In this document: positions 18,951 through 30,040 of the stretch, piece by piece
How positions within the stretch are numbered: position 1 is the stretch's first letter
How the letters are laid out: the number at the start of each line of letters is the position of its first letter
From: Candidatus Thorarchaeota archaeon
GTDB taxonomy: Archaea; Asgardarchaeota; Thorarchaeia; Thorarchaeales; Thorarchaeaceae
Reading direction: 5' to 3'
Length of the DNA: 53,305 bases
NCBI GenBank assembly: GCA_046758445.1
Contig: JBHIAE010000021.1
Coordinates: forward strand, 1 to 53,305
Position numbers and translations under genes: made by a program
Notes under the pieces: model-generated
What the model was told of the DNA's origin: nothing
Databases searched by the model: none
Seen by the model: only the letters and a program-made list of their open reading frames with translations

Positions 18951-20900
18951 TCAAGAAGTCGTCTTCTTTCCGGGTTTCTTCTTGGCTGCTGTTGTTGAAC
19001 GCCTCTTGGGCCTCGGTGGAGCCAATTCATTCAGCAGCTCCTCAAGTTGTTTCCGCTCATCCTTCAGCTTGAACCTCTTTGCAGATTCAATCGCCTGTTT
19101 CAGTGCGCCTTTGAGCCGCTCCAGTTCTAACTTCTTCTCTTCAGATTTGGTCATTGCCGCGATTGCTTCTCTACGCCTCGGCAGGATACGAAGAAGTCCA
19201 TCTATTGCAGCCTCAGCCTCTTCTTTGCTGACAAGCTCATCTTTCGGCTCGGTTTCAGCGGCATCAAGGATTCTCGTTATCTGCTCATAGACACGTGTGT
19301 GTTCTGACAAAGCGCCTCTGAGGATAGCTTCAACTTCGCTGTCAGGTTCAGCTTCTTTGAGATGACCCCTTATCTTTGCCATAGAGTCCTCAAGGAATGC
19401 TTTGCGCTCATTGAGGCTGGTCTTCTTCCGCTCCATCCACCTCCATTCATTCATGATTCCGTGAATGAGCGTTATGGCCTGATTGACCGTCTCCCTATAC
19501 TTGTTGACCTTCTCCATGGCTTCTCCGAGATCGGCTTCCAGTGTGTCTGCAACGTCGGTCAATTGATAACTCAGAATGTCCCCCGCCTGGGCCTCTGATA
19601 GTACTCGACTCTCCTTGATTGCCATTGAGGCGTCGTCCCAGAGCCTGTCGATCACTTCGTCCTCGAGTCGCACTTGACTGCCGGGCTGAATCTGCTGAGA
19701 CACATCTCGAATCTCTGCAGATAGATCTCCCAGCTCCTGAATCTTAGACTTGAGAAGGGCCTTGCCAAGTCGATTACTCAGCTCTTCGGTCAGTTTCTGG
19801 CGCTCTTCAGGGACCTCCAAGAGTGCGTGAGTATTATCAATCAGGTTCTGAAGGGCTTCCTCATAGGCCGCAACAGCTTGGTGATGGTTTCCACCCTCAA
19901 AGCTTGCATCACCAGTCCGTTGAAGTTTGAGCACTGACTCCAAGACATCGTAGGGGGATGTTCTTAACAGACTGATCCCGATCTGCGAGTCGCCTGTTGA
20001 GTTGAGATCGAGTGGCATCTCACCGAGCATTATGGAGATGACTTGAACACCGGTCGATGTCGCCACATACAAATTCGAGTGGTCTGCATCTATGTGATGG
20101 ATCTTCCCGTCTTCAAGCATGAATCTACCAATCTCGTTTGCTTTCAAGAGATCCCATAGTACGATAAGTCCCGAGTTCATCGCTGCTACCAGGAACATAT
20201 CGTTAGCCCAGAGTGAAAGTATGGCATTTGATGATTTCTTTTGAAGTGTCTGCATGTGTTGCCATTCGACACGGTCCCAGAGACTAATCTCACCAGATGT
20301 CGTACCGACAATGATGAACTCGGAGTTGCCAGCAAAGGCTGAAGGGCGAATCTTCTCATCAAGCCGCGCAAGCTCTGTTGGGCCAGTGTTGGGCCTATGG
20401 AGCCAGACACGTGGTTCTTCCTTCTTCGCTCCAGTCAAGATCACCTTGTCATCAGACCAAAGAGTTGTTAGATCGGCCTTGTGAAGCTTCCAGCTTGAGG
20501 TATCATGTGTGTCCTTTTTTATTGATACCAGTCTGCCTTCACTTGCTCCCACATAGAAGTGATCGCCATATAGTGACGATGTAACAGCTGGATATGTCAG
20601 CTCAAACCAGCCAGTCATGCCCCACGTCTCTTTCTGCCACACGTAGACTCGACGTTCGCATGTGGCAAAGATCTGTTCTTCGTCGACATGGACCGCCAAC
20701 GGCTCCGTGACAGTTTCACCTAGCTCTGCAACCAGTTTCCAGTCATCCTTGGACCACACTCGAACTCTTAGGTCTCTACAGGCGGCATATAGAAACCTCT
20801 CATCGTGAGCAACATTCACCGCTTCAGCTTCAAGAATCGAAGCCACTTCGTGGCCAAGGGGCTGGACGTTTCCTGCACTGCCACCGGTTGAGATAGGCAT
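18951..20900 (-). CDS. WD40 beta-propeller plus TPR/MIT-like helix and long helical C-terminal region
   Basis: Repeats ending VRVW/VYVW/ISLWD/IVLWD over the first ~290 aa, then GDASFEGGNHHQAVAAYEEAL, a charged helical region and a basic tail. Confidence 0.8.
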   Translation of the reverse strand: MPISTGGSAGNVQPLGHEVASILEAEAVNVAHDERFLYAACRDLRVRVWSKDDWKLVAELGETVTEPLAVHVDEEQIFATCERRVYVWQKETWGMTGWFELTYPAVTSSLYGDHFYVGASEGRLVSIKKDTHDTSSWKLHKADLTTLWSDDKVILTGAKKEEPRVWLHRPNTGPTELARLDEKIRPSAFAGNSEFIIVGTTSGEISLWDRVEWQHMQTLQKKSSNAILSLWANDMFLVAAMNSGLIVLWDLLKANEIGRFMLEDGKIHHIDADHSNLYVATSTGVQVISIMLGEMPLDLNSTGDSQIGISLLRTSPYDVLESVLKLQRTGDASFEGGNHHQAVAAYEEALQNLIDNTHALLEVPEERQKLTEELSNRLGKALLKSKIQELGDLSAEIRDVSQQIQPGSQVRLEDEVIDRLWDDASMAIKESRVLSEAQAGDILSYQLTDVADTLEADLGEAMEKVNKYRETVNQAITLIHGIMNEWRWMERKKTSLNERKAFLEDSMAKIRGHLKEAEPDSEVEAILRGALSEHTRVYEQITRILDAAETEPKDELVSKEEAEAAIDGLLRILPRRREAIAAMTKSEEKKLELERLKGALKQAIESAKRFKLKDERKQLEELLNELAPPRPKRRSTTAAKKKPGKKTTS

Positions 20901-21370
20901 GTTCCGGTCCCTTTTCCAATTCCATTGCTGTATAAGTGGCTTTGGTTTGTCTTAATTCATCTTATGATATACGCCGAATGCGCATCTGGGGATTCATTCA
21001 CGATTTCTTGAAAAGGAATTAACCGTTCTCAATACCAGTGCGCGAAACATACTCCTATAGCTCGCTTCGTACAAGGTGGCCTCTTATCATATGTCCGAAG
21101 ACATGAGGGCGTGGGCATCTTCGAAACCTGGGTGAGCCCCCATGATGCTCAGTCGACCAGGAATAGCTACACAACCTACATTGCCAAGTTCTTTGTCATT
21201 ATCTTGACTAGTCTTGCGATTCTCTTGGTTTCTTCTAGCCTTGCTGGTCTTATGGTACATGCCGGTCATGGGTCCACTTCGTGCCATTTGAAGTCGCCAG
21301 CGAAAGATCGTACTACTCTCTGATTTGTGACAGTCCCCGATTTCCCCTACCTACAACTGAGTTACAGACT

Positions 21371-21405
21371 TGCTATTTAAAGTCCGAAGTTTCCACATGG
21401 AAAGT
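21371..21405 (-). repeat. copy 1 of a 35-bp TATA-containing direct repeat (putative promoter/operator)
   Basis: + strand TGCTATTTAAAGTCCGAAGTTTCCACATGGAAAGT, 30/35 identical to 22396-22430. The minus strand reads TTTAAATA. Confidence 0.65.
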
Positions 21406-21420
21406 TCGCCCGGGCGAACT
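21403..21420. promoter_or_regulatory. perfect 18-bp palindrome
   Basis: AGTTCGCCC-GGGCGAACT, directly adjoining the TTTCCA-CA-TGGAAA inverted repeat. Confidence 0.5.
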
Positions 21421-21551
21421 ATTCATCTAGGTTTCGTCAGAGTTCAAGAGGAGAGAACGCTGCTGCGTTCTAAGGGTGGCTTCAATTGAGCCTTAAAGGA
21501 CCATTGAGAGGGTAATTGACCTAATGTAGTACACTGACCAGGTCCAGTCCT

Positions 21552-22169
21552 CTATCCATTCTCTTCAACCTCCCAAGTCCTCATGAGATCAAGCTCTAGC
21601 AGACGGTCCATGATTCTTCTCGCCACCTTGGGAACTTGTTCCTCACACTTGGCCCCGGTGATCACGATCTTGCCGGAGCCAAATATCAGGACCACAGTCT
21701 TTGGGTCCCTCATTCGATAGACTAGGCCTGGGAACTGCTCAGGCTCATACATACTGTTCTCGAGTGTCATGACTGCCCGTTCGAGGTCCACGGGACTACC
21801 AAGACTGCCACTGGCCACGACGTTCTGCATTGTGATCGTAGGTCTGCCCGTTGTCCTGATACCGGCCTCATTGAGGCTCTTCACAATCTTGCGGACTGCC
21901 CTCTTGACATCCTTCTCACACTTGGCCCCAGTACACACCATCTTTCCGGTATGGAAGATCAGTGTTGCAGTCTTGGGCTTCTTGAGACGGTAGACCAGAC
22001 CCGGGAAATCTCCCGGGTCATACTGAACACTGGGCACTCTAACTGCTATCTCATCCAGGTCAAGTGTCTGATTGAGAATGACAGAGGCTACAATGTTCTC
22101 AATCCTGGTCGTGATCTTTGTTGTTGGCGTAGTGACACTCTCTGATTTCTCTACCTGTAAGAGAAACAC
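21552..22169 (-). CDS. tbp: TATA-box-binding protein
   Basis: Two TBP repeats: IENIVAS...YDPGDFPGLVYR...LIFHTGKMVCTGAK and MQNVVAS...YEPEQFPGLVYR...LIFGSGKIVITGAK. GTG start with GGAG upstream. Confidence 0.97.
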   Translation of the reverse strand: MFLLQVEKSESVTTPTTKITTRIENIVASVILNQTLDLDEIAVRVPSVQYDPGDFPGLVYRLKKPKTATLIFHTGKMVCTGAKCEKDVKRAVRKIVKSLNEAGIRTTGRPTITMQNVVASGSLGSPVDLERAVMTLENSMYEPEQFPGLVYRMRDPKTVVLIFGSGKIVITGAKCEEQVPKVARRIMDRLLELDLMRTWEVEENG

Positions 22170-22395
22170 AGGTTCTCCATATGCTTCTTTGTATTTACTC
22201 TGGGATGGATGGTTTTACATGGCGAGATCACTGAGAATCTCAAGAAAGAGATCAGTGATGGCCTGATTGACATACTATTCGAAGTCACTATGAGAACCCT
22301 AGCTATCACTAGACCAGGACGGCGCATAGAACCAGCAGTCTTGCATCAATCATCCTGAGGGCCACTACGCTGTCAGGTCCTATAACTCAGTCATC

Positions 22396-22430
22396 TGCTA
22401 TTTAAGGTCCGAAGATTCCCCGTGGGAAGT
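22396..22430 (-). repeat. copy 2 of the 35-bp TATA-containing direct repeat, upstream of tbp
   Basis: + strand TGCTATTTAAGGTCCGAAGATTCCCCGTGGGAAGT. Confidence 0.65.
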
Positions 22431-22436
22431 GTGACT

Positions 22437-22562
22437 CTACCGACGCTTCCGTCTGTTCTTCATCTTCCTGGCAAACCATCGAAGCATCCTCTCTAGCCGC
22501 CTCTCAAGAGTGTTAGTCCTGTAGATCGCCTGTGACGTCACTATGTCCTCCTCACCAGTCAT
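22437..22562 (-). CDS. small basic hypothetical protein (41 aa, or 34 aa from GTG 22541)
   Basis: Hand translation MTGEEDIVTSQAIYRTNTLERRLERMLRWFARKMKNRRKRR*. GAGGAGG precedes the internal GTG; tightly packed with the upstream ORF. Confidence 0.45.
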   Translation of the reverse strand: MTGEEDIVTSQAIYRTNTLERRLERMLRWFARKMKNRRKRR

Positions 22563-22568
22563 CGACTC

Positions 22569-22724
22569 TCACTCTTCGTTGTGATTCCGCGACCATGCCA
22601 GGGCCAAGATAGCAAGTGTCCAGGACACGAACACATCCCCCAGGACCAGGCCATAGAACAGGGCTGCCAGTGTGAACACCTCGAGTGCCGTCGGCCAGCG
22701 CAGTCTATCCCGGACCCTCTTCAC
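22569..22724 (-). CDS. small two-TM membrane protein (51 aa)
   Basis: Hand translation MKRVRDRLRWPTALEVFTLAALFYGLVLGDVFVSWTLAILALAWSRNHNEE*. The GTG start overlaps the end of the upstream ORF. Confidence 0.45.
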   Translation of the reverse strand: MKRVRDRLRWPTALEVFTLAALFYGLVLGDVFVSWTLAILALAWSRNHNEE

Positions 22725-22945
22725 TCCCTATCATCTCCTTCACGGTCTTGCACAGCTCTTCTATCCCAACTAGACCCCCCCTGCCCTTCACAACAGCGTT
22801 GTCGAGCTGCAGGTGCTCGTTGACCACGTTGTCCTGGATCGGGATCACGAAGAACTGCAGCCGCCTCGGGATGATGATCACGACCACGCCGTTCTTCTGC
22901 GGAGCCACCGTGTAGTCGTAGTAGGGTCGTTCCTCACGCAGAACT
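22705..22945 (-). pseudogene. 5'-truncated gene fragment of probable foreign origin
   Basis: Protein-like REERPYYDYTVAPQKNGVVVIIIPRRLQFFVIPIQDN... with strongly C/G-ending codons and no convincing start of its own. Confidence 0.4.
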
Positions 22946-23017
22946 TGCGTGCTGCAGCTGAAGCATGGGAACTCTATCAGTGCGGTTTTAATGACAAAGC
23001 ACGACATCTGCCAAAGC

Positions 23018-23155
23018 ATGACATCTAAGGATTTCGAGAAGGAATTGCTGGAAGCTTTGAAGAAGATCGGCGACAACATGTTCCTGGTTCAATCAACATT
23101 AGCAGGAATTCATTCGGCTATTATCAGGCTTACAGAGATAGTTGATTCGAAGTAG
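23018..23155 (+). CDS. small helical hypothetical protein (45 aa)
   Basis: MTSKDFEKELLEALKKIGDNMFLVQSTLAGIHSAIIRLTEIVDSK, amphipathic; TTTTAA box about 27-32 nt upstream of the ATG (leaderless-type spacing). Confidence 0.55.
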   Translation: MTSKDFEKELLEALKKIGDNMFLVQSTLAGIHSAIIRLTEIVDSK

Positions 23156-23344
23156 ACCTTTCATGCGGAACGTGAATTCAACCCTACCCACGAGTCCATT
23201 CGAAAAAAGCACTTAAGGTCGGTCAGGAATCGAGTCATCTATGCACCATGAAGTCAGTAGGCCATTCATTCATAAACTAAAGCCCGCTGATATCCATAGC
23301 TCGAAAATTGAACAGAGCGAGCCCCTAGCTAGGAGGTAGCCGTT

Positions 23345-26032
23345 TTGGACAGTCATGCTTGGAGAAGAGAAATCGACAAGGTTGCTGAGATAAAGGGTAT
23401 TCTCACATCACTGAATAAGGCACTAGAAGATCAGGCAGACCGCAGCGTCCGCCATCTATATGACACTTTGGCAAAGTTCTCAAAGATAGAAAGTGATGCG
23501 GCGACTGCAGGTTTCATGAAGAAGAGGAAGCTTTCCTCTCAGATGGACAAGGTGCAGAGTAACCTCGAAGAGGACTTCATGAAGTCTGTTAGAGATTTCT
23601 CCGACCTGTTGAGGAAGGAACATAGAGACACAGTTGCAGTGCTTCCAAAGCTCCAGACTCAGAAGCCGAAAGAAGCAGCGGCAATCTCAGCGTTGACTTT
23701 CCCATCAACCGGTACCGGTGATGCGAAGGACCTTGAAACTCTTAGGACATTCGCCAAGAACTTCTCTAAGCCGTCCCTAGATGTCCATCAGGACCTCGCG
23801 AAAGAGGGCAAGGAGCTGCTAGATGAGAATAAGCGTATTGTCGAAACCTACGAGAAACACGTCACGATCGATAGGGGAGAGGTGGCAACGACCACATCCA
23901 ACGACGAAGTAGCACATCTCTCAGTAGGAGATCTAATGACCATAATTGAGAAGCTGAGATTAGAACGTACATATCTCGATGGACGCAAGGACGAAGTGGG
24001 GAAGATGATAGTGACCTCCTTGATGACTGAGGTTGAGTCACTTCAGGCCTCCGTAGAAACGGCCTCACGTCTTGGGCTCGAGCTACCAATGGACTTTTCA
24101 AAGCAGCTCAGGATAATCGGAAGAGATGCTTCAAAGACGTCGAACCTCACGTCACTCATTGCCCTCGAGAACCAGCTTCACTCTGCGAAGGTGAAGGTAT
24201 CTGACATGCTTCGCGACCGCATCATTAACATGAAGCACGAAGTCACAACCAAGATTGTGGAAGGGGGAATCCCAGTCACCTCAGAGGTCATTCCAGAAGC
24301 GCCCACGGTGGGAGTGGAAGCGGATGATGTCGCAAGTCTTCTGTCCTCCTATCAGAAGATGGTTGAGTGGGAGGGACAGGTCAAGATCTCAATCAAAGAC
24401 CATGTCAAGGAGGTTCTCGATGAGGTTGAGAAGGCAACTGACGTACCAGAGGACACTGGAATCGAGGATATTGTGACGGTAAGAAAGTGGCTTGCTGGCG
24501 CAAAGAAGAGTCTGAAGAAGGCCGGCATTGATGACTTGGTCAAGACCTACGTTGAAGCTAGCAAGATGAGAGAGGAGTATAGGAAGAATCTCATTGATAC
24601 GATTAGGCAATACATCACCAGGTTTAACGAACTCGCTACATCAGCAGACAGAGTTCTCGACTATGCGCAACTCAGGAAGAAAGCGCCCAAGGTGGAGGAC
24701 CTCGAAGGAGGTATAGTCTTTCTGCTACAGTCTTTGGCGAATCTCCGTGGAGCCGTAGAGGATGGAGTTGCAACCTTCCGAGAGGCTTGTCAGCAGGAGA
24801 TTGAAGTCATTGTAGAAGACCTGCAGACCGTCAAGCCGGCATATGCAGAGATCTTCTTGCCGACTATCACCGAGCTTGATGAAGGACTCGCACGAATCGA
24901 GAAGCTGAATGAGTTTGGCGAGATAAGGTCAGAGATGAGGACTATCAAGGAAACAATCCTTGCGAAGGCAAAGGACTCACTCGAGAACCTAAGGTACAGA
25001 CTCGGTGTCAAGATAAGACTCGCCGCCGCCAAACTGATGGGTGCAGGCGTGGAGATACCTAAAGAAGTCCAAGAAGCAATTAGTGAACTGAATAGCGTCG
25101 GCGTTGCTGCTGATACTGTATTCAGCCTCCCTGCAATAGCTAGGAAGATGATTGAGATCTATGAACAGAAGATCAGTGCAAAGGTCATAGAACAACTGAA
25201 GGTAGAAGTCGGAAAGCTGGAAGACTCTTTCGAACAGGCCAAGTCAATCGGCGTTCCTGTTGATGAGGAACTTTCACTCCTTCAGAATCTGCGTGATACT
25301 CCTCCTGACGAGTTGGAGCAAGCGGCGGACTCGTTTGACAAGCTCATGAGCTTGACAACATCTGCAGCTGTTCACAAGAAGATCAGGACACGCGCCAACG
25401 ATGCCCACCGCCAGATCAAGGGAGCTGTTTCCATATTCGAAGATCAGGGCATGTCTGACTTCGTGGCTCGACTCAAGGGTCTCCTCGAGCAGGTTCCTGA
25501 GGAGATGGCAGTAGAATCGAAGCACATACAAGAGATTCTGGAGGTCTGTTTGACTCTGGCCAGTATTCAAGATGAGATGCTTCAGATGATTAAGAGCATC
25601 GCAAGTAAGGACAGGGAACAGCATCTGGATGAGATAAAGAGCAGGTCCGAGTACTATTCGACAATAGAGGCAGTCTACGAGAAGCATCCCAAAGACTTCA
25701 GCAAACTCATCTTCCCGCTGGACAAGCTGAAGAAACTCGAAACTGACCTGACTGATGCCGTCGTACTCGAGAATGCGATTCAAAACTTCAACGACGTGAA
25801 GGCACTGCGAGCAGAATGGACTGAGAAAGCTGAGAAGATGGATGACTGGCACAAGTCCATGAGAGTCTTTATGACTGGGTTCAGCCCTGCTGCTCCCCCT
25901 GAACAGCGGGAAACCTTCATAACTGATGCAGTCAAGAAAGTCAAGGAAACCTACAGCAGAAACGACATCAGTTCCTATCTAACTTGGGCCATTAGAGAGA
26001 TTGCTGATAGGATGGTAGGGAAACGGGGATAA
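23345..26032 (+). CDS. large all-alpha helical-repeat/coiled-coil protein, first gene of the tubulin-like operon
   Basis: 895-aa ORF rich in E/K/L/A with no TM or NTPase motif; AGGAGGT RBS before the TTG start. Confidence 0.85.
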   Translation: MDSHAWRREIDKVAEIKGILTSLNKALEDQADRSVRHLYDTLAKFSKIESDAATAGFMKKRKLSSQMDKVQSNLEEDFMKSVRDFSDLLRKEHRDTVAVLPKLQTQKPKEAAAISALTFPSTGTGDAKDLETLRTFAKNFSKPSLDVHQDLAKEGKELLDENKRIVETYEKHVTIDRGEVATTTSNDEVAHLSVGDLMTIIEKLRLERTYLDGRKDEVGKMIVTSLMTEVESLQASVETASRLGLELPMDFSKQLRIIGRDASKTSNLTSLIALENQLHSAKVKVSDMLRDRIINMKHEVTTKIVEGGIPVTSEVIPEAPTVGVEADDVASLLSSYQKMVEWEGQVKISIKDHVKEVLDEVEKATDVPEDTGIEDIVTVRKWLAGAKKSLKKAGIDDLVKTYVEASKMREEYRKNLIDTIRQYITRFNELATSADRVLDYAQLRKKAPKVEDLEGGIVFLLQSLANLRGAVEDGVATFREACQQEIEVIVEDLQTVKPAYAEIFLPTITELDEGLARIEKLNEFGEIRSEMRTIKETILAKAKDSLENLRYRLGVKIRLAAAKLMGAGVEIPKEVQEAISELNSVGVAADTVFSLPAIARKMIEIYEQKISAKVIEQLKVEVGKLEDSFEQAKSIGVPVDEELSLLQNLRDTPPDELEQAADSFDKLMSLTTSAAVHKKIRTRANDAHRQIKGAVSIFEDQGMSDFVARLKGLLEQVPEEMAVESKHIQEILEVCLTLASIQDEMLQMIKSIASKDREQHLDEIKSRSEYYSTIEAVYEKHPKDFSKLIFPLDKLKKLETDLTDAVVLENAIQNFNDVKALRAEWTEKAEKMDDWHKSMRVFMTGFSPAAPPEQRETFITDAVKKVKETYSRNDISSYLTWAIREIADRMVGKRG

Positions 26033-26051
26033 TTGAAAGGGGACACAACTA

Positions 26052-27437
26052 ATGTCAAGAGGCACACCGAGCGACGATGAGCTTACGAAGGCCGCAGAGG
26101 TCTTCGCAATAGGCATAGGCGAATGTGGATCGAATATAGTAGGGTCCTATCTGAAAGCAAGCGAAGATCGAAAGCTTCCTTCCAGGGTCAGAGGCTATCT
26201 TCTGATGAATACCGATAGGGCAGATCTTACCAAGGTTCGACAGAAGTACGGTATTCCGAAGGAGCACACGATGCTCTATGGTGCATCAGAGATTGGCGTC
26301 GGAGGGCGTTTCATGGACGGCTATAATGCTGTCCACGAGTCAAAAGACATCATCTTCAACCAGCTTGCAGATTTGGGATTTGAAGGTGTTTCAGGATTCT
26401 GTATCTTTACGAGCCTAGGAGGCGGCACCGGTTGTGGCGGAACACCGGCCATAATCGAGCTTCTGAAGCAACGCTTCCAGGAGGAGGAGGGCCGTAGAAT
26501 CTTCGTCTATGTGATTGGAATCCTTCCCTTTGAGGGACAGTCCAGCGAGGCTCTGAACTCTATCTGGGCAGTTTCCAAGCTACTCAGAGCCCAGCTGCAA
26601 GAACGAGGCGCTGATCTGACGATTCTTCTAAGCAACAGAACCATGCTGAAGAGGATTCTACAGTCAAGAAGGTCTGACAGTGTCGAGTATCTTCAACGTG
26701 AGCTTGAGATAGACATCGCAAATGTTGAGCAAATAGAGAAGATGGTGCCTTCTACTTTGGATGAGGGCGGAGAACTTGAGACACGTACCGAGCAGGCGTT
26801 CGTCGAACTAGTGAATCCGCTTGCTCTAGATGTTGTGGAAGCAATGTTGTCTCCAGGTGTTTATGAGCAGAACAAAGACGTGTTTCCCACAACGGACTTG
26901 GCTGACTACGCAAGGAAGCTAGACCCTGTAGTCGTACCTTCCCTGTATACGGATGTTGGTCTGATTCCTGATGCAGGGAGCATGCCAAAACAGCTCCGCA
27001 CGATGATGGATTATGCAGTCAGAGAGTGTTCATACGCAGACGTGGGGGACGAGCCGAATGCTGAGAGTGTCTACTATGTCTTCTCTGGACCAAGGCACAT
27101 CTCCAAGGCCGAGTATGGAATGCACTTGAAGGAGGCCCTTGATGGTTTCATCGCTCCAGGTGCAGCAATAACGCCTTGCTATGTGCAATATCTCGTTCCG
27201 GATCCCCAGACAAACCTTCTGGTCTTACTTGGCCTGCCCAAGATTCCAGAGCTTGTTCAGATCATCAATGAGGCCACGCAGCTAGTCAATCTTCATAGCG
27301 GTTCCTCACCGCTCAAACAAGGATGGTTCATGCGTTCCAAAGGCACAACTAGAAAGGAGCTCGTGGACGCGATAGCAGACTTCAGAGAACTGTTCTCTTA
27401 CTACATGACACCTGGTGATACAATGGAGCCGATGTAG
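26052..27437 (+). CDS. divergent tubulin/FtsZ-superfamily GTPase
   Basis: T1 IGIGECGSNI, T2 MNTDRADL, T3 GVGG, T4 SLGGGTGCGG, T5 ILPFEGQ, T6 ILLSN, T7-like TTDLADY. Confidence 0.92.
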   Translation: MSRGTPSDDELTKAAEVFAIGIGECGSNIVGSYLKASEDRKLPSRVRGYLLMNTDRADLTKVRQKYGIPKEHTMLYGASEIGVGGRFMDGYNAVHESKDIIFNQLADLGFEGVSGFCIFTSLGGGTGCGGTPAIIELLKQRFQEEEGRRIFVYVIGILPFEGQSSEALNSIWAVSKLLRAQLQERGADLTILLSNRTMLKRILQSRRSDSVEYLQRELEIDIANVEQIEKMVPSTLDEGGELETRTEQAFVELVNPLALDVVEAMLSPGVYEQNKDVFPTTDLADYARKLDPVVVPSLYTDVGLIPDAGSMPKQLRTMMDYAVRECSYADVGDEPNAESVYYVFSGPRHISKAEYGMHLKEALDGFIAPGAAITPCYVQYLVPDPQTNLLVLLGLPKIPELVQIINEATQLVNLHSGSSPLKQGWFMRSKGTTRKELVDAIADFRELFSYYMTPGDTMEPM

Positions 27438-27455
27438 CCTGGGGATGGTACAGAA

Positions 27456-28532
27456 TTGACTGAAGAAACCAACATCAGCGAGGACCTGATTGACAGGCTC
27501 CTTCTGATTGTGACATTGAACTCCACGTTACTTCATTTCATCCTCAGCTCACAGATAGAAGGCTCCGTTGATCCTGACAGAGTGGATTCGTTGACTCAGG
27601 GTTTGCTCAGGACTCGTAGGTGGATGGAAGAAGCCACGAACATGAAGGGCATCACTCCCTCAACGCAGAATATTATCAGCCTGATCGTTAAGAGGCTCTC
27701 ACAGATCGAGAGCATTCTACCCAAACTCTCTGCTAAAGCCAAGGAAGCGGAGGCAAAAGGAGCCCCCACACAAGAGATACTCTCACTTCTCGATGATGAA
27801 GCGAAAGTCGCAACCCATCACGCCTCATCCGAGGTAGCCGCACCAAAGGTTTCAGGCGGCGACGCCAAGGTCATTCCTTTGGTCGGTGAAGAGGCCGAAG
27901 CGCCTAGTGAGCCATACCGAAGGGTCGATGTGGAGAACGACGAGTGGGGTCTGATTGGACAGATGCAGCGAATGCTACAGCAGTATTCCAAGCGTTGCCA
28001 CACTCTGTTGCCAACGTTCTGGGTCGACACGCTGCGAGAGCTGCACAAATACCGTTCAGAGTCCCCATACATTGGCGATGTCATTGAGGTGCCCGGCAGG
28101 ATCCTGGTGACAATAGTGAAAGGGCTCCTGACAGAGGCACCGGGAGCCAGGCTGCTACAGGACCTATTCAAGAAACGTCCCGCCGAGAAGCACTTGAACT
28201 CTTCAGAAATGGAAAGAGTGGAACGGGCCGTCGCAAAGTACTTCTCAGGAGTCGTCGATGTTCTGAACGGACAGGAGCTGGATGTAGAGGAGAAGATAGC
28301 AGAGGCCAAGTCGACTTTTGATGGATTCGGATGGGGCGGACCAGAGCTAGAGAAGCGAATCATAAAGAGAATCAATCAGCAGTGCCAAGAGGCTCTGCAG
28401 AACGCAGAGTCTGCAAGCGATCCCCAGAGACAGGCCATCTACGCTGAGATAGCGAAACTACTCACCAAGCTTCAACATGCCATCCTTGCGGAGCCCAGGC
28501 TACGAGAAATACTCACACAAATGAAACCATAG
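27456..28532 (+). CDS. hypothetical helical protein, third gene of the tubulin-like operon
   Basis: 358-aa ORF starting 18 nt after the tubulin-like gene; two helical regions separated by an A/E/P-rich linker. Confidence 0.8.
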   Translation: MTEETNISEDLIDRLLLIVTLNSTLLHFILSSQIEGSVDPDRVDSLTQGLLRTRRWMEEATNMKGITPSTQNIISLIVKRLSQIESILPKLSAKAKEAEAKGAPTQEILSLLDDEAKVATHHASSEVAAPKVSGGDAKVIPLVGEEAEAPSEPYRRVDVENDEWGLIGQMQRMLQQYSKRCHTLLPTFWVDTLRELHKYRSESPYIGDVIEVPGRILVTIVKGLLTEAPGARLLQDLFKKRPAEKHLNSSEMERVERAVAKYFSGVVDVLNGQELDVEEKIAEAKSTFDGFGWGGPELEKRIIKRINQQCQEALQNAESASDPQRQAIYAEIAKLLTKLQHAILAEPRLREILTQMKP

Positions 28533-28633: not shown

Positions 28634-30040
28634 ATGTCCGGTCTCAAGACAATGCTCAATCCGAAGGCAACAGCTGTTATTGGGGTGTCCACCTCAAATC
28701 CCTTCTCCCCGGGTAACGTGATCTTCCGGAAGCTGTGCTTTGAGAACAATCTCACAACTTATCCAATTAACCCGCGTGGAGGTAATGTCGAGGGCAAGAA
28801 GGTCTACAAGTCGATCTTGGATGCGCCCGAGGGCATAGATCTGGCTGTGATTGCCATACGGGCAAAATACGTTTCAGAGGTTCTGAAACAGTGTGGGCAA
28901 AGAAACATCAAATCTGTCATTGTGGTATCTGGGGGTTTCAGCGAGGTTGGTGAGTCCGGGACTTCACTGCAGACAGAGATCGTCGAAATAGCCAACGAAC
29001 ATGGAATAACAATGGTCGGCCCCAATTGCATCGGTGTCTTTGTGCCAGAACGTCTTGACACTTTCTTTCTACCGTCCGAGAGGGTCGCAAGACCCAGAAA
29101 GGGCGGCGTAGCGATAGTGTCGCAGAGTGGAGGCTGGCTTGTCGAGAGACTGGAGGAGTTCGCTGATAGGCATGTCGGAATCGCAGCCGCAGTTTCGATT
29201 GGGAATCAGGCTCAGACGAAAGCGGCCACATTCGTTGAGCACTTTGGACATGATGATGATGTCTGTGTGATTCTCGTCTATGTGGAGGGGTTTGGCGAGA
29301 ATGAAGGAAGAGAGTTTGTGGAAGTCTGTGCCAAGATAGCGCCGAAGAAGCCGGTTGTCGTTCTGAAAGGAGGAGAATCAGAGGCTGGACACCGTGCAAC
29401 ACAGAGTCATACGTCATCACTGGCAGGAAACATGGCAATAGCGAATGCCGCATTTGAACAGTTCGGAGTTATCAGAGCCGTGGATGAGGATGAGGTGATG
29501 GCATACTCGAAGGTATTCTCATTTCGTCCAAAGCCAATGAAAGGAACCGGTGTGGGGACACTTACTGTAAGCGGAGGACACGGTGTCATCGCTAGTGATG
29601 AGGCATCGCATTACGGACTTCAATTCCCTCCCTTCTCCAAAGATGAACAACATGCTATGAGAGATGTCATGACACCGGCATACCAGGGGATAGCCTCATT
29701 CCGGAACCCTTGCGATTTGACTGGAAGTGCATCAGATATTGACTATGAAAGAGTCCTGGATGTGATGCTCACGTTCGACAACATCGATGCAGGTCTAATG
29801 CTCCTGTTACCTTATGCGCCTGGGATCTCGCTCCAAATCGGAACCCGAGTCGCAAATGTGGCCAAACGCCATGACAAGACAGTGGTTGCATATGTCCCCA
29901 ATCTCGATAAGTATGAGGTCATCATCCGGGGTTTTGAGATAAATGGCATTCCAGTAGCCGACACCATTGAGGAGGCTGTTCAGATGCTTGACGGCATCAG
30001 GAAACGCTCATCATATCTGCTCCGCATTGGAGAGATATGA
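28634..30040 (+). CDS. acdA: ADP-forming acyl/acetyl-CoA synthetase alpha subunit
   Basis: YPINP, GGFSE, GPNCIG, SQSG, SIGN, LKGG, phospho-His SHTSSLAG, NPCDLTG. Confidence 0.9.
   Translation: MSGLKTMLNPKATAVIGVSTSNPFSPGNVIFRKLCFENNLTTYPINPRGGNVEGKKVYKSILDAPEGIDLAVIAIRAKYVSEVLKQCGQRNIKSVIVVSGGFSEVGESGTSLQTEIVEIANEHGITMVGPNCIGVFVPERLDTFFLPSERVARPRKGGVAIVSQSGGWLVERLEEFADRHVGIAAAVSIGNQAQTKAATFVEHFGHDDDVCVILVYVEGFGENEGREFVEVCAKIAPKKPVVVLKGGESEAGHRATQSHTSSLAGNMAIANAAFEQFGVIRAVDEDEVMAYSKVFSFRPKPMKGTGVGTLTVSGGHGVIASDEASHYGLQFPPFSKDEQHAMRDVMTPAYQGIASFRNPCDLTGSASDIDYERVLDVMLTFDNIDAGLMLLLPYAPGISLQIGTRVANVAKRHDKTVVAYVPNLDKYEVIIRGFEINGIPVADTIEEAVQMLDGIRKRSSYLLRIGEI

Follow-up and report, generated by a model that had tools for sequence, protein, structure and literature searches.

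The stretch of DNA analysed here (the window) comprises 53,305 nucleotides (nt) of contig JBHIAE010000021.1 from a Candidatus Thorarchaeota archaeon, and positions 23345-28532 of its plus strand carry three co-oriented open reading frames (ORFs). These encode a protein of 895 amino acids (aa; the big protein), a 461-aa GTPase of the tubulin/FtsZ superfamily and a 358-aa protein (the small protein). We consider it likely that the three genes form a conserved, vertically inherited module of the Asgard archaea, built around a GTPase of the group known as Asg.Tub, in which the GTPase would polymerise and be served by a dedicated rod (the big protein) and a dedicated adaptor (the small protein). 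The GTPase family already has a name. The genes and their ribosome-binding sites (RBS) are as follows.

23345-26032, plus strand: gene 1, ORF of the big protein, 895 aa, TTG start
26052-27437, plus strand: gene 2, ORF of the GTPase, 461 aa, ATG start
27456-28532, plus strand: gene 3, ORF of the small protein, 358 aa, TTG start
23331-23336, plus strand: RBS of gene 1, AGGAGG, 8 nt before the TTG, read from the sequence
26035-26043, plus strand: RBS of gene 2, purine-rich GAAAGGGGA, inside the 19-nt gap, read from the sequence
27441-27448, plus strand: RBS of gene 3, purine-rich GGGGATGG, inside the 18-nt gap, read from the sequence

The conservation of the trio was followed in orthologues from 80 GTDB species genomes and in the loci of more distant members, which cover Heimdall, Hodarchaeales, LC_3, Asgardarchaeia and Baldrarchaeia (42% identity). 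The results showed that the order big protein, GTPase, small protein on one strand is present in all of the approximately 100 loci with enough flanking sequence, barring a second, two-gene copy, and that it is kept across Thor, Hermod, Borr, Sif, Baldr, Heimdall/Hod and Asgardarchaeia. In all loci the gene immediately before that of the GTPase encodes an orthologue of the big protein, 865-1400 aa in length; the gene immediately after it encodes an orthologue of the small protein in every Thor locus with flank and in 24 of the 26 from other lineages. When the neighbours in the 26 non-Thor loci were clustered, only the big protein (26), the GTPase (26) and the small protein (24) were common across lineages; the remaining neighbourhood was lineage-specific. 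The two loci lacking the small gene (L087:3572-8338 and L094:6420-11180) are a second, paralogous copy that consists of the big protein and the GTPase. Apart from the small gene in this second copy, both partners co-occur with the GTPase wherever it was found. Between classes the GTPase is 50-63% identical and the partners only 18-30%, yet the partners are always present. We concluded that the trio is no chance arrangement, the same order and strand recurring in all related loci with enough flank.

In the window the genes are separated by gaps of 19 and 18 nt, and in the Baldr loci and those of several other lineages they overlap. The co-orientation and close packing here, together with these overlaps, point to co-transcription and coupled translation. 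A sequence-only reading of the window, made by a model without database searches, had described three co-oriented genes with these gaps and a purine-rich RBS before each, and had taken them for a self-contained unit; the ORFs and the sequence agree with the former, and the conservation of the three genes as a block across distant Asgard classes agrees with the latter. Some further observations concern single loci. In one family (f11, probably Hodarchaeales) a second and diverged module is frequent among the genomes, and the one in L087 is surrounded by several genes of Arf/RagA-type small GTPases. Arf-family small GTPase genes also precede the operon by no more than a few kb in two loci, one from Heimdall (L001:102-1037) and one from Asgardarchaeia (L003:4532-5113); such neighbours may be due to chance, these genes being abundant in Asgard genomes. 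An apparent truncation of the big gene in Thorarchaeota bin8 (CP070658.1, L007:1-6000), where its last 234 codons lie beside 200 N, was rejected as a scaffold gap.

With a threshold of E 1e-60 or better, the GTPase was present in 123 of 400 Asgard genomes. It is nearly universal in some families, including the window's own Thorarchaeotal family (74/85) and four others (19/22, 15/19, 5/5 and 4/4), and it is absent from others, namely the largest (0/135) and three more (0/31, 0/14 and 0/12). Its identity drops with taxonomic distance, which is in line with a gene passed down vertically from an early Asgard ancestor and lost in some lineages, and the sequences indicate strong purifying selection. 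Bona fide tubulins with a Tubulin_C domain were found in 8 of the 400 genomes and never alongside Asg.Tub. The genomes with Tubulin_C (labels G047, G138 and G298-G304) belong to four families that hold no Asg.Tub. The distributions of tubulin and Asg.Tub may thus be complementary, which is a hint only, as few independent lineages are concerned.

The 461-aa protein matched the Pfam family Tubulin (PF00091) with 73.1 bits (cut-off 33; E 4.7e-20) over residues 16-200. Its loops were compared in an alignment of 16 orthologues with 50-100% identity. T1 (GIGECGSN, with the pattern GxGxxGxN), T3 (GVGG) and T4 (GGGTGCGG) are invariant, and in T4 a Cys replaces the Ser/Thr of tubulin and FtsZ. T5 reads LPFEGQ, of which LPF is invariant; T6 reads SN(R)TM, of which SN is invariant; and T7 reads TTDLADY, at residues 280-286, of which D282 and D285 are invariant. 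The invariant residues are G21, G23, G26, N28, G82, G84, G85, G123-G130, P159, F160, N195, D282 and D285. By domain and loops, the predicted protein is a tubulin/FtsZ-superfamily GTPase with the tubulin signature loop, as had been read from the letters, and it appears from this alignment to keep every nucleotide-contacting loop of the superfamily, including both acidic residues of T7.

The putative T7 loop was assigned by motif and spacing. TTDLADY resembles NLDFADV and NLDYADV in the genome's own two FtsZs, and its distance from the signature loop fits after allowing for a lineage-specific insert of about 45 aa at residues ~200-247. The motif had to serve here, because beyond the N-terminal domain the profile yields no alignment with the genome's FtsZ. 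Another segment, VNPLAL (255-260), considered as a degenerate T7, was ruled out by its spacing and corresponds to helix H7. Pfam gave no match to a Tubulin_C or FtsZ_C domain in the GTPase (Tubulin_C, PF03953, at E up to 1), and PF03953 had no match anywhere in the genome, the same search finding 8 other Asgard genomes. Among solved structures the best relatives are CetZ proteins, with 4b46 at the top (E 9e-10 with the sequence, E 7e-11 with the family profile), followed by 3zid and 4b45; tubulin structures match near E 1e-4. All structure matches lie in the GTPase domain only, and those to 4b46, 3zid and 4b45 are limited to profile positions ~12-174.

Asg.Tub was named by Santana-Molina, del Saz-Navarro & Devos 2023 (Front Microbiol 13:1100249, PMC9871819) as a CetZ-like group of the Asgardarchaeota with four founding sequences (KXH77455.1, OLS30664.1, OLS26264.1 and PWI48967.1; supplement of PMC9871819). 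In that paper its position was unstable between CetZ and tubulins and was judged CetZ-like; the group was called scarce, and its context was given as 'unknown and unrelated genes', with a remark on unknown coiled-coil genes near Asg.Tub, while CetZ genes are without such partner genes. The printed N-terminus of KXH77455.1, from Thorarchaeota SMTZ1-83, has one difference from the window GTPase in the first 15 residues. OLS26264.1 (Heimdall LC_3) is our sequence P0112 (locus L086) among the orthologues, annotated 'Tubulin-like protein CetZ' in the public record, and the founding member from AB_25 is locus L027. Searched with a profile, 1.84 billion representative proteins gave two full-length representatives at 695 and 488 bits, then P0374, a single relative with 27% identity to the GTPase, at 155 bits, and then scores of 73 or lower, which marks the family as an isolated one. 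Taken together, the sequence comparisons place the window GTPase in the Asg.Tub clade.

A quick maximum-likelihood tree was built from 117 sequences, with 14 Asg.Tub orthologues sampled, including P0112, and with outgroups picked by similarity to the query. All 14 orthologues fall into a single clade with a Shimodaira-Hasegawa-like approximate likelihood ratio test (SH-aLRT) value of 100 and a long stem. This clade lies outside a 42-sequence clade that we labelled canonical CetZ because its member P0392 matches the Haloferax CetZ 4b46 at 3e-113 over the full length. Asg.Tub groups instead with Asgard tubulins and another non-canonical clade (support 97), and an approximately unbiased (AU) test did not reject Asg.Tub as sister to canonical CetZ (p 0.15). 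Owing to this p value and to the way in which the outgroups were picked, we made no choice between a placement on the CetZ side and one on the tubulin side. The sequence-only reading had called the GTPase divergent, and the tree, the profiles and the lack of Tubulin_C set it apart from ordinary CetZ, from FtsZ and from bona fide tubulins. It had also called the system a candidate undescribed one, which goes too far, the GTPase clade having been named in 2023 with its coiled-coil neighbours remarked upon (PMC9871819). In the full-text literature we found no functional or structural study of Asg.Tub, and the name is confined to that single paper.

The sister group of Asg.Tub in the tree consists of P0374 and P0386. 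The gene of P0374, of metagenomic origin (L098:7001-9149), keeps GGTGCGG and the T7 motif. On its upstream side there is no big protein, and smc and scpA precede it at a distance of 2.8 kb; on its downstream side a 262-aa gene overlaps it. An alignment of the 262-aa product with the small protein, made to see whether they are homologous, gave a probability of 42% over 32 columns.

The AlphaFold2 model of the 895-aa protein is helical throughout, with a mean predicted local distance difference test score (pLDDT) of 86.5, in keeping with the all-helical protein expected from the letters. Its predicted template modelling score is low (0.38), which fits an extended object. The helices follow a long-short-long pattern that starts at about residues 215, 329, 457, 594 and 729, and self-alignment of the profile gave offsets of ~138 and ~272 residues with a probability of ~95%; the protein has about five tandem helical-bundle repeats of 115-140 aa each. 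Both ends are conserved: the N-terminal ~210 residues contain the motif GF-x-KKRKL (K59, K60), and the C-terminal ~140 residues contain the invariant W835, H836 and Y878. The range of 865 to ~1400 aa among orthologues may reflect differing repeat numbers, the repeats having been analysed in the window protein alone. No relatives of the big protein were found in Pfam, NCBIfam or the PDB sequences. A match of its residues 725-796 to GCP_C_terminal was considered as a sign of kinship with gamma-tubulin complex proteins (GCP) and rejected; its E is 0.0032, its 17.4 bits fall short of the cut-off (25.8), and only 2 of 24 family members show it. The whole model gave no standout GRIP-like match, 7m2w_G ranking 45th with E 1.5. 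We concluded that the GCP_C_terminal match is due to chance.

The AlphaFold2 model of the 358-aa protein is likewise all-helical, as had been expected, with a mean pLDDT of 81.6 and values above 90 in the C-terminal domain. The model divides the protein into the following parts.

Residues 1-113: three-helix bundle
Residues 102-149: disordered linker
Residues 150-358: globular helical domain

The C-terminal domain has an invariant L-x-EAP motif (L225, E227, A228, P229). Pfam, NCBIfam and the PDB sequences hold no relatives of the small protein. Foldseek with the whole models of both partners returned generic helical-bundle matches only (E 0.07 or higher), in which the C-terminal domain of the small protein was barely covered, and VIA-align with both models gave Z scores of at most 11.9, within the helical background, the 895-residue model being too long for a fair domain search. 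Pfam, NCBIfam and profile scans gave no DNA-binding family in either partner, the C-terminal domain of the small protein not having been fold-searched alone. A complex prediction with residues 720-895 of the big protein, the small protein and the GTPase gave an unspecific score, a control in which the small protein was replaced scoring nearly as high, and counts neither for nor against the complex. The sequence-only reading had spoken of a rod or scaffold and an adaptor. The models indeed predict a long, helical rod and a smaller helical protein of two domains, neither belonging to a known family, and the two terms describe shape only, because neither partner has a recognisable binding domain.

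The genes around the operon in the window are listed below.

21552-22169, minus strand: tbp, flanking gene on the upstream side of the operon
28634-30040, plus strand: ADP-forming acetate-CoA ligase, alpha subunit, flanking gene on the downstream side of the operon
18951-20900, minus strand: WD40 gene, possible accessory, 649 aa, with a WD40 beta-propeller (Pfam WD40-type), a helical/coiled-coil region and a basic tail

Gene 3 and the gene for the acetate-CoA ligase alpha subunit are separated by a 101-nt spacer with its own TATA-like ATATAA, and the ligase gene is outside the three-gene unit. No centromere-like iterons or iterated repeats were found upstream of the operon in 20900-23400. The genome has just two further PF00091 genes, both FtsZ-like and each on other contigs. 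The usual neighbours of tubulin-family genes had been reported missing, and the flanks bear this out: they are tbp and acetate-CoA ligase, and there is no second tubulin, no Tubulin_C domain and no upstream iteron.

By tblastn, the WD40 gene stands head-to-head with gene 1, about 200 bp apart, in 44 loci, all of them from Thorarchaeota, and beside the operon in no non-Thor locus. The WD40 protein may be a lineage-specific fourth component, a link drawn from position only. In the window a segment of ~2.2 kb (~21065-23295), with tbp and a 124-aa ORF, sits between the WD40 gene and the operon, and tbp is flanked by two 35-nt direct repeats (21371-21405 and 22396-22430). Near-identical relatives (L084 and L010) join position 21064 directly to 23296, with an overlap of ~8 nt at the junction; from this comparison, the tbp segment is read as an insertion in the divergent intergenic region of the WD40 gene and the operon.

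In the protofilaments of FtsZ and alpha-tubulin, the acidic residues of T7 complete the active site of the next subunit. Because of this role, we propose head-to-tail assembly with assembly-coupled hydrolysis for Asg.Tub: the GTPase would build protofilaments in a GTP-dependent manner or, at the least, oligomers joined head to tail. The 895-aa rod would bind the polymer through its conserved ends and act as a spacer, cross-linker, stabiliser or ruler, its length being set by a repeat number that would differ between lineages (865-1400 aa). The 358-aa adaptor, through its globular C-terminal domain and the N-terminal bundle flexibly linked to it, would attach the polymer or the rod to a further structure, which in Thorarchaeota may be the divergently transcribed WD40/coiled-coil protein. 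Binding of the rod to the polymer and the role of the adaptor are suggested by shape and co-inheritance only. The candidate roles of such a system are internal organisation, shape or membrane remodelling.

Several points weigh against this proposal. The T7 call is one of motif similarity, and the C-terminal half of the GTPase could not be aligned to FtsZ or CetZ by profile methods. Sequence, profile and fold searches gave no recognisable tubulin-, membrane- or DNA-binding domain in either partner. The small protein does not seem always to be needed in cis, because the second copy (L087, L094) is without it. Across the whole Asg.Tub clade, moreover, polymerisation, GTPase activity and binding are predictions.

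The same data were weighed for other explanations. The GTPase might form no filament and act as a nucleotide-dependent switch or dimer in a stable complex with the helical proteins, as gamma-tubulin is held by GCP. The partners are obligatory and co-inherited, the ~45-aa insert is unique, the C-terminal half matches no tubulin or FtsZ C-domain model, and there is the faint GCP_C_terminal match of the big protein. That match, however, is below its cut-off and present in few family members, no GRIP-like fold stood out, and the two acidic residues of T7 do not vary, a hallmark of activation of one subunit by another; we regard the switch as unlikely. A smaller chance still is given to a DNA-segregation system of the TubZ-TubR-TubY or PhuZ kind, in which a filament would push or pull the DNA and the small protein would serve as its centromere-binding adaptor. 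tubZRC loci are three genes around a divergent tubulin-like GTPase, a layout that the present operon resembles, and the gene of the distant relative P0374 is near smc and scpA. Yet the operon is chromosomal, single-copy and vertically inherited among housekeeping neighbours that differ by lineage, its gene order and partner sizes are unlike those of tubZRC, and neither upstream iterons (20900-23400) nor, in family and profile searches of the two partners, a DNA-binding domain was detected.

Very improbable, finally, is an ordinary cell-shape CetZ with unrelated flanking genes. CetZ proteins are the best solved relatives of the GTPase (4b46 by sequence and by profile), the public record of P0112 calls it CetZ, and the AU test does not reject sisterhood with canonical CetZ. 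But the clade is outside canonical CetZ, whose member P0392 matches 4b46 over its full length, the similarity to CetZ covers the N-terminal 150 residues only, and the neighbours are strictly conserved; the conserved synteny already contradicts this explanation. None of the three fits the data as well as a polymerising GTPase with dedicated partners.

The trio has stayed together in roughly one in three Asgard archaea, the microbes nearest to eukaryotes, and is probably a cytoskeletal module. Should the GTPase and the rod polymerise together, they would make up a new kind of tubulin-type cytoskeleton in prokaryotes, one supplied with its own accessory proteins. Asg.Tub is about 15 times commoner than the bona fide Asgard tubulins (8 of 400 genomes) that have been the focus of recent work, and with its two dedicated partners it makes a defined three-protein system open to expression, reconstitution and imaging. 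A bolder idea, which we hold to be doubtful, is that of a third, Asgard-specific tubulin-type cytoskeleton, neither FtsZ/CetZ nor tubulin: a polymer driven by GTP, with its own partners in the part of microtubule-associated proteins and, in Thorarchaeota, a link to a coat-like WD40 protein, serving intracellular organisation or membrane traffic and not division. If this were true, the place of Asg.Tub between CetZ and tubulin would show how tubulin-partner systems originated before eukaryotes.

Among known systems, EzrA is a regulator of FtsZ with spectrin-like helical repeats, and the FtsZ-EzrA pair is like the present one, by analogy only, in combining a tubulin-family polymer with a long protein of tandem helical bundles. 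The rod differs from EzrA and spectrin in that its matches to them reach Z scores of at most 11.6, within the uninformative helical range, and in being without a membrane anchor. OdinTubulin, AtubA/B and BtubA/B(-BtubC) share with Asg.Tub the tubulin superfamily, an Asgard or bacterial origin and adjoining helical partner genes; unlike these bona fide prokaryotic tubulins, Asg.Tub is without a Tubulin_C domain and without a second tubulin gene. The helical genes that flank OdinTubulin were considered as remote kin of both partners and ruled out (best hhalign probability 18%).

CetZ (Haloferax volcanii CetZ1/CetZ2, 4b45/4b46; Methanosaeta, 3zid) is likewise an archaeal tubulin-superfamily GTPase and the best structural match, and both it and Asg.Tub have a tubulin-like T1 and an FtsZ-like T7. 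Asg.Tub is unlike CetZ in its GGGTGCG, its ~45-aa insert and its different C-terminal half, the match extending over ~150 N-terminal residues only. A CetZ-like gene of the Halo.Tub type is found in the haloarchaeal 'Halo_adaptin' ESCRT-like loci (Makarova et al. 2024, mBio, PMC10936438). Halo.Tub is, like Asg.Tub, a non-canonical CetZ-like clade, and adjoins Asg.Tub in published trees. Its partners are a Vps4-like ATPase, PspA-like proteins and IG-domain 'adaptin-like' proteins, whereas those of Asg.Tub are a helical rod and a helical adaptor. Halo.Tub loci also encode beta-propeller proteins (PMC10936438), and the Thorarchaeotal Asg.Tub operon stands head-to-head with the gene of a WD40 protein; this parallel between propellers may be suggestive and is not evidence. 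The Asg.Tub of PMC9871819 is the same protein family as the one described here; there it comprised four sequences, and here it extends to 123 of 400 Asgard genomes and is accompanied, in a set order, by two particular partner families.

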